Positions 14,056-14,366 of a stretch of DNA of 29,757 nucleotides are shown here, one piece after another. A program made the translations under genes and the position numbers. This DNA is from a virus (lineage: Duplodnaviria > Heunggongvirae > Uroviricota > Caudoviricetes), in IMG/VR virus record IMGVR_UViG_2534681675_000023, positions 1 through 29,757 of that record; one strand, written 5' to 3'. Under the pieces are notes generated by a model. The model saw only the letters and a program-made list of their open reading frames with translations. It did not search any database and was not told where the DNA came from. Within the stretch, counting starts at the first letter, position 1; each line of letters starts with the position of its first letter.

Positions 14056-14276
14056 TTTAACAGATATGTCAATTTCCGCTCATCGTTCAAAGCGGACTAG
14101 AAGGTTAGCTTGCGTCGGACTTGGCGTTTTTAAAGAAGTGCTGGTGGTGACTGGTTGTTGTGTTCCATTTCTACAGAACAAAATCACAGAAACTATTCCC
14201 AATAGTTTTATTGAATCAATGATGAGACAGCCTCATATTTATCAGGACTGGTGTACGTCCAATACAGGAGGTTGTC

Positions 14277-14366
14277 GTGCTGGTTCTCAAATGTGCGCTC
14301 GCTATTGCGGCTGTAATGGCAATTTATTGTCTTGCTGTTGTTCTTATGGATCGCCTTTCTGATTGA
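14277..14366 (+). CDS. Putative small hydrophobic peptide (29 aa)
   Basis: GTG start 5 nt after consensus AGGAGG (14266-14271); encodes VLVLKCALAIAAVMAIYCLAVVLMDRLSD, a single predicted TM helix; absent from the ORF track only because it is shorter than 60 aa. Confidence 0.35.
   Translation: MLVLKCALAIAAVMAIYCLAVVLMDRLSD

Follow-up and report, generated by a model that had tools for sequence, protein, structure and literature searches.

A small open reading frame upstream of hokD probably encodes a membrane peptide and travels as a moron-like cassette among Escherichia and Shigella lambdoid prophages

Is a 29-codon open reading frame (ORF) that lies immediately upstream of a hok/sok locus in a lambdoid prophage a gene, and if so, does it encode a second toxin or something else? 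We pursued this question in the IMG/VR record IMGVR_UViG_2534681675_000023, the entire 29,757-nucleotide (nt) stretch of which (hereafter, the window) is a lambdoid, Qin-like Escherichia coli prophage; the stretch tested is 100% identical to the chromosome of strain ARS-C301. A preliminary description of the window had drawn attention to the small ORF as unannotated, adjacent to hok, and equipped with a consensus Shine-Dalgarno sequence, and had noted that small membrane peptides of this kind are often type I toxins or membrane modulators. Our analyses indicate that the ORF is probably a true gene that has its own promoter, encodes a 29-residue peptide crossing the inner membrane once, and forms a moron-like cassette of Escherichia and Shigella lambdoid prophages. 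The cassette is carried in the early-right/nin region, usually, but not necessarily, upstream of hokD/sok. We infer promoter activity, translation, membrane insertion, and a cellular role for the peptide from its sequence and that of its relatives.

The frame opens with a GTG placed five nucleotides after an AGGAGG motif and continues for 29 codons to a TGA stop, exactly as had been described (Table 1). The peptide, (M/V)LVLKCALAIAAVMAIYCLAVVLMDRLSD as read from the sequence and the ORF list, has a lysine (K5) on its N-terminal side, a hydrophobic core of 19 residues (C6-M24), and a short D25-R26-L-S-D29 tail. The best 19-residue Kyte-Doolittle mean was 2.70, in agreement with the earlier impression of a hydrophobic, transmembrane-like helix. 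Proximity to hok was likewise confirmed, with the ORF stop located 43 nt before the Rfam match to the hok/sok leader and 212 nt before the hok ATG. In first-order Markov simulations of the window, a comparable small ORF, defined as one of 20-50 amino acids (aa) that is preceded at 4-9 nt by AGGAGG and whose best hydrophobic stretch scores at least 2.5, was found in none of 300 replicates. The simulations, the hydropathy, and the coordinates therefore argue that the small ORF is real and no product of chance.

Conservation of the reading frame was assessed in an unbiased sample, for which IMG/VR was scanned with a pattern containing promoter and Shine-Dalgarno bases only, yielding 131 copies. 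All 131 of these upstream-anchored copies had the GTG start and an open frame, with zero frameshifts or premature stops; 127 encoded exactly 29 aa, and the remaining four, having lost the stop, encoded 31 or 35 aa. Among twelve loci picked down the blastn ranking and aligned, differences within the ORF often fell on third positions and replacements were conservative. For codon analysis of the upstream-anchored set, which contained 25 distinct alleles and 41 variants, we used a proxy for the ratio of nonsynonymous to synonymous change (dN/dS). This proxy was 0.41 in the ORF frame versus 0.92 and 1.07 in the two alternatives; read in frame +1, seven of the 41 variants would make stops. A permutation test that kept the numbers of transitions and transversions gave 11.9 expected synonymous variants against the 18 observed (P = 0.029), and 5.4 expected changes to polar, charged, proline, glycine, or stop codons in the helix core, where none was observed (P = 0.002). 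The joint P for the synonymous excess and the lack of helix-breaking changes was 3.5e-4.

Length and hydrophobic character were also retained in the two most divergent alleles. One of these, the L151 type, shows differences at 19 of 87 nt, with ten replacements, all to uncharged residues and nine of them hydrophobic-to-hydrophobic. The other, which is approximately 20% different, resides on pINV, the virulence plasmid of Shigella and enteroinvasive E. coli; this copy, 79% identical, begins with ATG and encodes 29 aa (MLVLKGTLAIAAVMTIYCLIVVLMERFSD). The reading frame is thus conserved in homologous regions, the point that the preliminary description had singled out for checking, and selection is specific to that frame. 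These allele comparisons show purifying selection on the peptide, apparently for a hydrophobic helix.

Signals upstream of the ORF were examined in an ORF-anchored set, unbiased for upstream DNA, that comprised 33 distinct upstream sequences from at least six diverged lineages. CATATT, the predicted -10 hexamer, was invariant in all 33 and was also present in the pINV copy. Exactly 17 nt 5' of it, most lineages had TTGAAT, TTGAAG, TTGCTG, or TTGAGT, and the 17-nt spacer had diverged to about half identity between lineages while the hexamers were kept. The Shine-Dalgarno sequence was AGGAG, GGGAG, or GGGGG in 32 of the 33 (the exception being AGAAG), with constant spacing to the start codon. 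This TTGnnn-17 nt-CATATT pattern matches the footprint that a sigma-70 promoter would leave and predicts its activity; transcription would begin at about 14246-14247, producing a leader of about 30 nt with a conserved ACGTC motif. A terminator-like hairpin inside the ORF (14301-14320) was dismissed because the L006-type allele does not preserve it. Preceding the promoter in most copies is a conserved non-coding block of approximately 125 nt, which we call region A. It tolerates indels, the L007 type having lost 28 nt, and its end, immediately before the -35 hexamer, is an AT-rich hairpin plus T-run (AAACTATTCCCAATAGTTTTATT). Region A might act as a weak terminator or have a regulatory function.

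Identity profiles over 85 distinct homologous segments of 540 nt delimited the cassette. Between the most different contexts, homology extended from the -35 region (~14207-14235) to ~14378-14385, that is, about 12-20 nt past the stop, and for the L006 locus it was confined to ~14207-14378. The right-hand mosaic boundary, where homology with the non-hok contexts (L006, L009, and L029 types) ends, overlaps the putative hok -35 hexamer. Upstream DNA varied, being region A as in the window, queH, or others. Downstream of the 151 evaluable copies, we found hok in 133 (88%), a convergent DUF1971 gene in 15, and other sequence in three. The pINV copy is located ~290 nt upstream of the annotated start of icsP (sopA), inside the H-NS/VirB-controlled region, and is followed by a decayed, truncated hok leader. 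Many hok loci, including those of O157 prophages and of K-12 Qin, exist without the cassette. Since the cassette occurs without hok and hok without the cassette, the ORF is separable and does not form an integral part of hok/sok. Presence and context hence vary, with junctions at the cassette borders, as is the case for phage morons. In many genomes, among them those of L011 (E. coli AR_0055) and L012 (O157:H7 PV15-279), a recombination junction falls inside the small ORF (L011:1470-1510 and L012:1480-1600), from which the boundary of the hok module would reach ~45 nt upstream of the hok -35 hexamer.

The cassette is common. A blastn query comprising 14200-14420 had matches in 3154 of 5426 complete E. 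coli genomes, at least 1813 of which cover ≥80% of the query, whole ORF included. Searches by degenerate DNA patterns and tblastn placed the small ORF on chromosomes of E. coli, E. albertii, E. ruysiae, and Shigella, in 143 plasmid records (124 of them from Shigella), and in four sequenced Escherichia phages, Tritos, Evi, mEp460_ev081, and HannyBb. It was also found in three short contigs of metagenome-assembled genomes labelled Collinsella, Scatousia, and Haemophilus, which possibly represent mis-binned Escherichia phage DNA. The pattern used on genome contigs forced residues 12-26 and so had little power for divergent relatives elsewhere.

The label "unannotated" stood for part of the public record. 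RefSeq, annotated by the Prokaryotic Genome Annotation Pipeline (PGAP), has nothing over the small ORF in any record inspected. In GenBank, by contrast, the identical peptide is deposited as a "hypothetical protein" (GCZ25347.1), and close variants are deposited as "membrane protein" and, from E. coli B REL606, as "conserved hypothetical protein" (ACT39199.1), such that gene callers of several independent submitters predict the ORF. NCBIfam, Pfam, and PADLOC gave no match, and the only PHROGs match was phrog_19319, with E = 0.74. A literature search with peptide strings found no paper containing the peptide sequence, and searches of the hokD small-protein and hokW/sokW literature found no mention of an upstream ORF. 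A preprint on Pas small RNAs proved unrelated, since those loci lie near lysis genes in a different region. In K-12 the small ORF is missing because relBE abuts hokD there, and it therefore escaped small-protein surveys based on K-12.

In the explanation that we consider best, the sigma-70 promoter (TTGAAT-17 nt-CATATT) would drive a transcript with an unstructured leader of ~30 nt, and the consensus Shine-Dalgarno sequence 5 nt before the GTG would allow efficient translation. The C6-M24 core would insert in the cytoplasmic membrane and leave K5 and the D-R-L-S-D tail on opposite faces. The peptide would then act in the membrane, more likely by modulating some membrane function of the host or the phage, or as an accessory subunit in it, than as a Hok-type killer.

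Several observations weigh against a functional gene of this sort. The family is young and narrow, with nucleotide divergence of at most ~22% and copies found only in Escherichia and Shigella, so that the selection statistics draw on a small number of variants that are not fully independent. When viral contigs were scanned twice for copies using other codons at Ile16 or Tyr17, none turned up, and no distant homologues were obtained. The predicted promoter agrees with eight of 12 consensus positions and is absent from the list of a strict consensus scan, while some lineages have a poor -35 (TGCGAA or TCTCAT types). The interval from the ORF stop (14366) to the hok +1 (~14409) also contains no terminator-like site, so that a transcript from the ORF promoter should run on into hok; in the DUF1971 context there is just a weak AT-rich hairpin 3' of the ORF. 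Many hok loci, among them L011 and L012, hold only the last ~25 nt of the ORF, hence the gene is dispensable. Finally, table S3 of a differential RNA sequencing study of S. flexneri M90T lists no start where the pINV copy has its predicted promoter; the closest one on that strand, labelled "novel transcript", lies 321 nt upstream, at 91318 on the minus strand (PMC7132871). This counts as weak counter-evidence because the pINV copy sits in H-NS-silenced DNA upstream of icsP.

A rival proposal is that the frame is non-functional, its hydrophobicity fortuitous, and the DNA recently shared and kept for another reason, either as hok regulatory DNA or by hitch-hiking. Low divergence, the narrow taxonomic range, the missing start in Shigella, and the lack of a PGAP call are all consistent with it, and the retention of the last ~25 nt by hok loci that do not have the ORF suggests that this stretch may matter for hok. 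It is, however, difficult to reconcile with the 18 of 151 copies in which the cassette lacks hok, with the intact pINV copy beside a decayed hok leader, or with the frame-specific selection. Promoter hexamers and Shine-Dalgarno sequence are moreover kept across diverged spacers, the breakpoints bracket promoter and ORF, and a small ORF of this kind is very improbable by chance; we regard the non-functional alternative as unlikely. The absence of a terminator before hok, and the presence of hok after 88% of copies, could instead point to a cis-acting upstream ORF, in which read-through into hok and translation of the ORF would change how a 5'-extended hok mRNA folds or how stable it is, while the peptide sequence would be secondary. 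Even the 35-aa allele, which extends into the hok promoter, would suit such an arrangement, yet a purely cis-acting ORF has no need of the selection seen for peptide hydrophobicity, and cassette and hok each occur without the other, making this explanation very improbable. The preliminary description had itself named the overlapping 98-aa frame as a competitor, being the longer open frame in the window. Over the 85 distinct homologous segments, however, the frame ending at 14362 is open for 23 to >86 codons with no conserved start, and in other lineages different sequence stands in for its upstream part, or 28 nt of that part are deleted. It is the frame with the dN/dS proxy of 1.07, it lacks a Shine-Dalgarno sequence, and no annotation pipeline calls it. 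We rejected it as the real gene on the grounds of its variable length, its lack of a conserved start, and that proxy, and we put the chance that it is one at practically nil.

A type I toxin, the other role raised at the outset, would be a membrane-depolarising killer like Hok, TisB, or ZorO with an unseen antitoxin RNA, and would render ORF and hok a double-toxin locus. At 29 aa and a hydropathy of 2.70, the peptide has the generic type I character of a hydrophobic membrane peptide of less than ~60 aa; its size, single hydrophobic helix, and charged C-terminus fit type I toxin architecture, and it adjoins a true type I system. Against this, hmmscan at E ≤ 10 recovered neither Hok/Gef (PF01848) nor any other Pfam family, and Smith-Waterman alignment with the HokD of the window gave z = 0.33 against shuffles. 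Alignments with Hok, HokB, HokE, TisB, ZorO, DinQ, Fst, ShoB, IbsC, and LdrD, which serve as a lead only, gave z of -0.96 to 0.60, such that no toxin similarity exceeded composition. An origin as a remnant or duplication of Hok was rejected, there being no similarity to Hok. At the RNA level, besides the shortness of the leader, the sense RNA (14246-14385) shows a minimum free energy of -35.8 kcal/mol versus a shuffle mean of -34.0 kcal/mol (z = -0.55), with the Shine-Dalgarno sequence unpaired in the minimum free energy structure. RNAalifold proposed a weak pairing of the Shine-Dalgarno sequence with the 3' end of the ORF; this pairing has one compensatory pair, is confounded by coding constraint, and gives no convincing 5'-3' sequestration. 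The antisense RNA folded no better than shuffles (z = -0.99), and no Rfam family lay over the small ORF, nor any in 14200-14400 even at E ≤ 1. With these values and the single compensatory pair, a structured RNA or small RNA was rejected as the explanation of the locus.

An antitoxin RNA could conceivably start from a minus-strand sigma-70-like site that overlaps the putative hok promoter, as its transcript would be antisense to the ORF. The -35 of this site nonetheless lies outside the conserved cassette and is missing where the cassette adjoins DUF1971 or sits on pINV, and the -10 varies between TAAAAT, TGAAAT, and TGTAAT. We found no minus-strand terminator at the locus and no conserved pair of antisense promoter and terminator among the copies compared, and the M90T data list no antisense start between 90219 and 91397, over the pINV copy (PMC7132871). 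The search for an antisense RNA that the preliminary description had advised yielded no convincing candidate in these comparisons; a trans-encoded small RNA could still act as an antitoxin. We consider a toxin role for the peptide, which sequence comparison does not support, improbable overall. The exposed, strong ribosome-binding site and the lack of an antitoxin signature favour a tolerated membrane modulator over a Hok-like killer, so that of the two roles first suggested the modulator is the more likely. Frame, start, Shine-Dalgarno sequence, selection, promoter footprint, and mosaic borders together uphold the earlier view of a small membrane-peptide gene; its type I toxin component found no support. 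A more speculative extension of a functional peptide, and one that we rate as quite unlikely, is that it partners hok/sok, either as a second membrane-active peptide or as a modulator of Hok via a co-transcript that escapes or retunes tac/fbi/Sok control, or that the pINV copy affects the envelope or virulence.

Table 1. Positions of the small ORF, its signals, and neighbouring features (window numbering unless a record is given).
Feature	Position	Strand	Details
Small ORF	14277..14366	+	GTG 14277-14279; 29 sense codons; TGA 14364-14366
Shine-Dalgarno AGGAGG	14266-14271	+	5-nt spacer TTGTC, then GTG
Predicted -35 hexamer TTGAAT (sigma-70 promoter of small ORF)	14211..14216	+	Footprint across lineages; predicted promoter spans 14211-14239
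Predicted -10 hexamer CATATT	14234..14239	+	Invariant across the ORF-anchored set and in the pINV copy
Predicted leader, ~30 nt	14246..14276	+	Conserved ACGTC motif at 14255-14259; includes the Shine-Dalgarno sequence
Post-stop stretch, ~20 nt	14367..14385	+	Right-hand mosaic boundary of cassette
Minus-strand sigma-70-like site TTAACT-18 nt-TAAAAT	14395 to 14366	-	Overlaps putative hok promoter
Putative hok promoter TTGGCG-17 nt-TAGGAT	14374..14402	+	Placed by position relative to leader start; conserved in all hok-linked copies; outside cassette
hokD/sok locus	14409..14808	+	Leader 14409-14583 (Rfam RF01794, 108 bits); hok ATG 14578
pINV copy of small ORF, S. flexneri M90T pWR100	NZ_CP037924.1 90911-90997	-	L183:3501-3590 (+)
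Overlapping 98-aa frame	14066-14362		
Region A	14085-14210	+	Conserved non-coding block, ~125 nt
Inverted three-gene block	12202-13950	-	Upstream of small ORF
ALIL pseudoknot	8657-8773	+	Rfam RF01497, 120.9 bits
DicF small RNA gene	4791-4842	-	Rfam RF00039, 76.7 bits

The neighbouring hokD of the window is itself unusual in that it has no stop. GAG GAG TAA has become GAG GAG TTA, and the frame runs on to the end of the locus, extending HokD from 51 aa to ~76 aa (…YEPEELETRRGRNPSPPLMSQASSMHPHLT). Normal HokD alleles are 51 aa and end in YEPEE; the window allele goes on with LETRRG... and also carries Q4H and G37S. RefSeq treats it as a pseudogene missing the C-terminus, and the same stop-less allele was present in two other loci that we retrieved.

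Elsewhere in the prophage, a match to the DicF small RNA gene indicates that the opposite strand carries an immunity region of the Qin/dicB type. An ALIL pseudoknot, the programmed-frameshift signal of IS3-family transposases, shows that an insertion sequence element has inserted in the prophage. Upstream of the small ORF lies an inverted block of three genes, encoding a 208-aa hypothetical protein, a 232-aa zeta-toxin-family protein (AAA-like kinase), and a 77-aa hypothetical protein. PADLOC matched nothing in this block, which may represent a toxin or defence cassette that has yet to be characterised.

Annotation systematically overlooks small membrane proteins, and this segment is present in about one third of complete E. 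coli genomes. If expressed, the peptide would be a widespread prophage-borne factor that could act on the inner membrane, with possible roles in phage exclusion, stress tolerance, or interplay with Hok; were it indeed a partner of hok/sok, many prophage "hokD" loci would be two-peptide modules. There is also a practical aspect, namely that deleting or cloning "hokD" loci or the icsP upstream region may unknowingly remove or include the small ORF. It merits inclusion in annotation databases as a conserved family of small membrane proteins.

Among known systems, Hok/Gef is the closest in location. Like Hok, the peptide is small, borne on prophages and plasmids, and contains one N-terminal hydrophobic helix, and it is encoded on the same strand as hok, adjacent to it, and co-inherited with it in ~88% of copies. 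Unlike the 29-aa peptide, Hok has ~50 aa, a periplasmic C-terminal domain, and a conserved Cys/"LCE" region, and the small ORF has no mok-like overlapping frame, long folded tac/fbi leader, or Sok-like antisense RNA. The shorter type I toxins TisB, ZorO, DinQ, ShoB, Ibs, Ldr, and Fst resemble the peptide in their length of 19-35 aa, in forming one helix that is amphipathic or hydrophobic, and in the charge at one terminus. Their mRNAs have long structured 5' untranslated regions, sequestered Shine-Dalgarno sequences, and defined antitoxin small RNAs, whereas the small ORF has an unstructured leader of ~30 nt, no conserved antitoxin candidate, and, as far as the indicative alignments go, no homology to them. 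Phage morons, in the sense reportedly used by Hendrix and Juhala, are autonomous promoter-gene-terminator cassettes between conserved lambdoid genes. The cassette described here departs from that definition in that no terminator of its own was detected; it is moron-like in comprising one small gene, in the promoter footprint that belongs to this gene, in its mosaic junctions and variable contexts, and in its place in the accessory part of the early-right region. Finally, identity with the YnfS peptide of the K-12 Qin prophage was considered and rejected, the sequences being unrelated. In kind, the two are nevertheless alike: YnfS also has 29 aa, is hydrophobic, is encoded in the same kind of prophage, and was missed by standard annotation, and it is among the E. 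coli small membrane proteins that have been validated by ribosome profiling or tagging.

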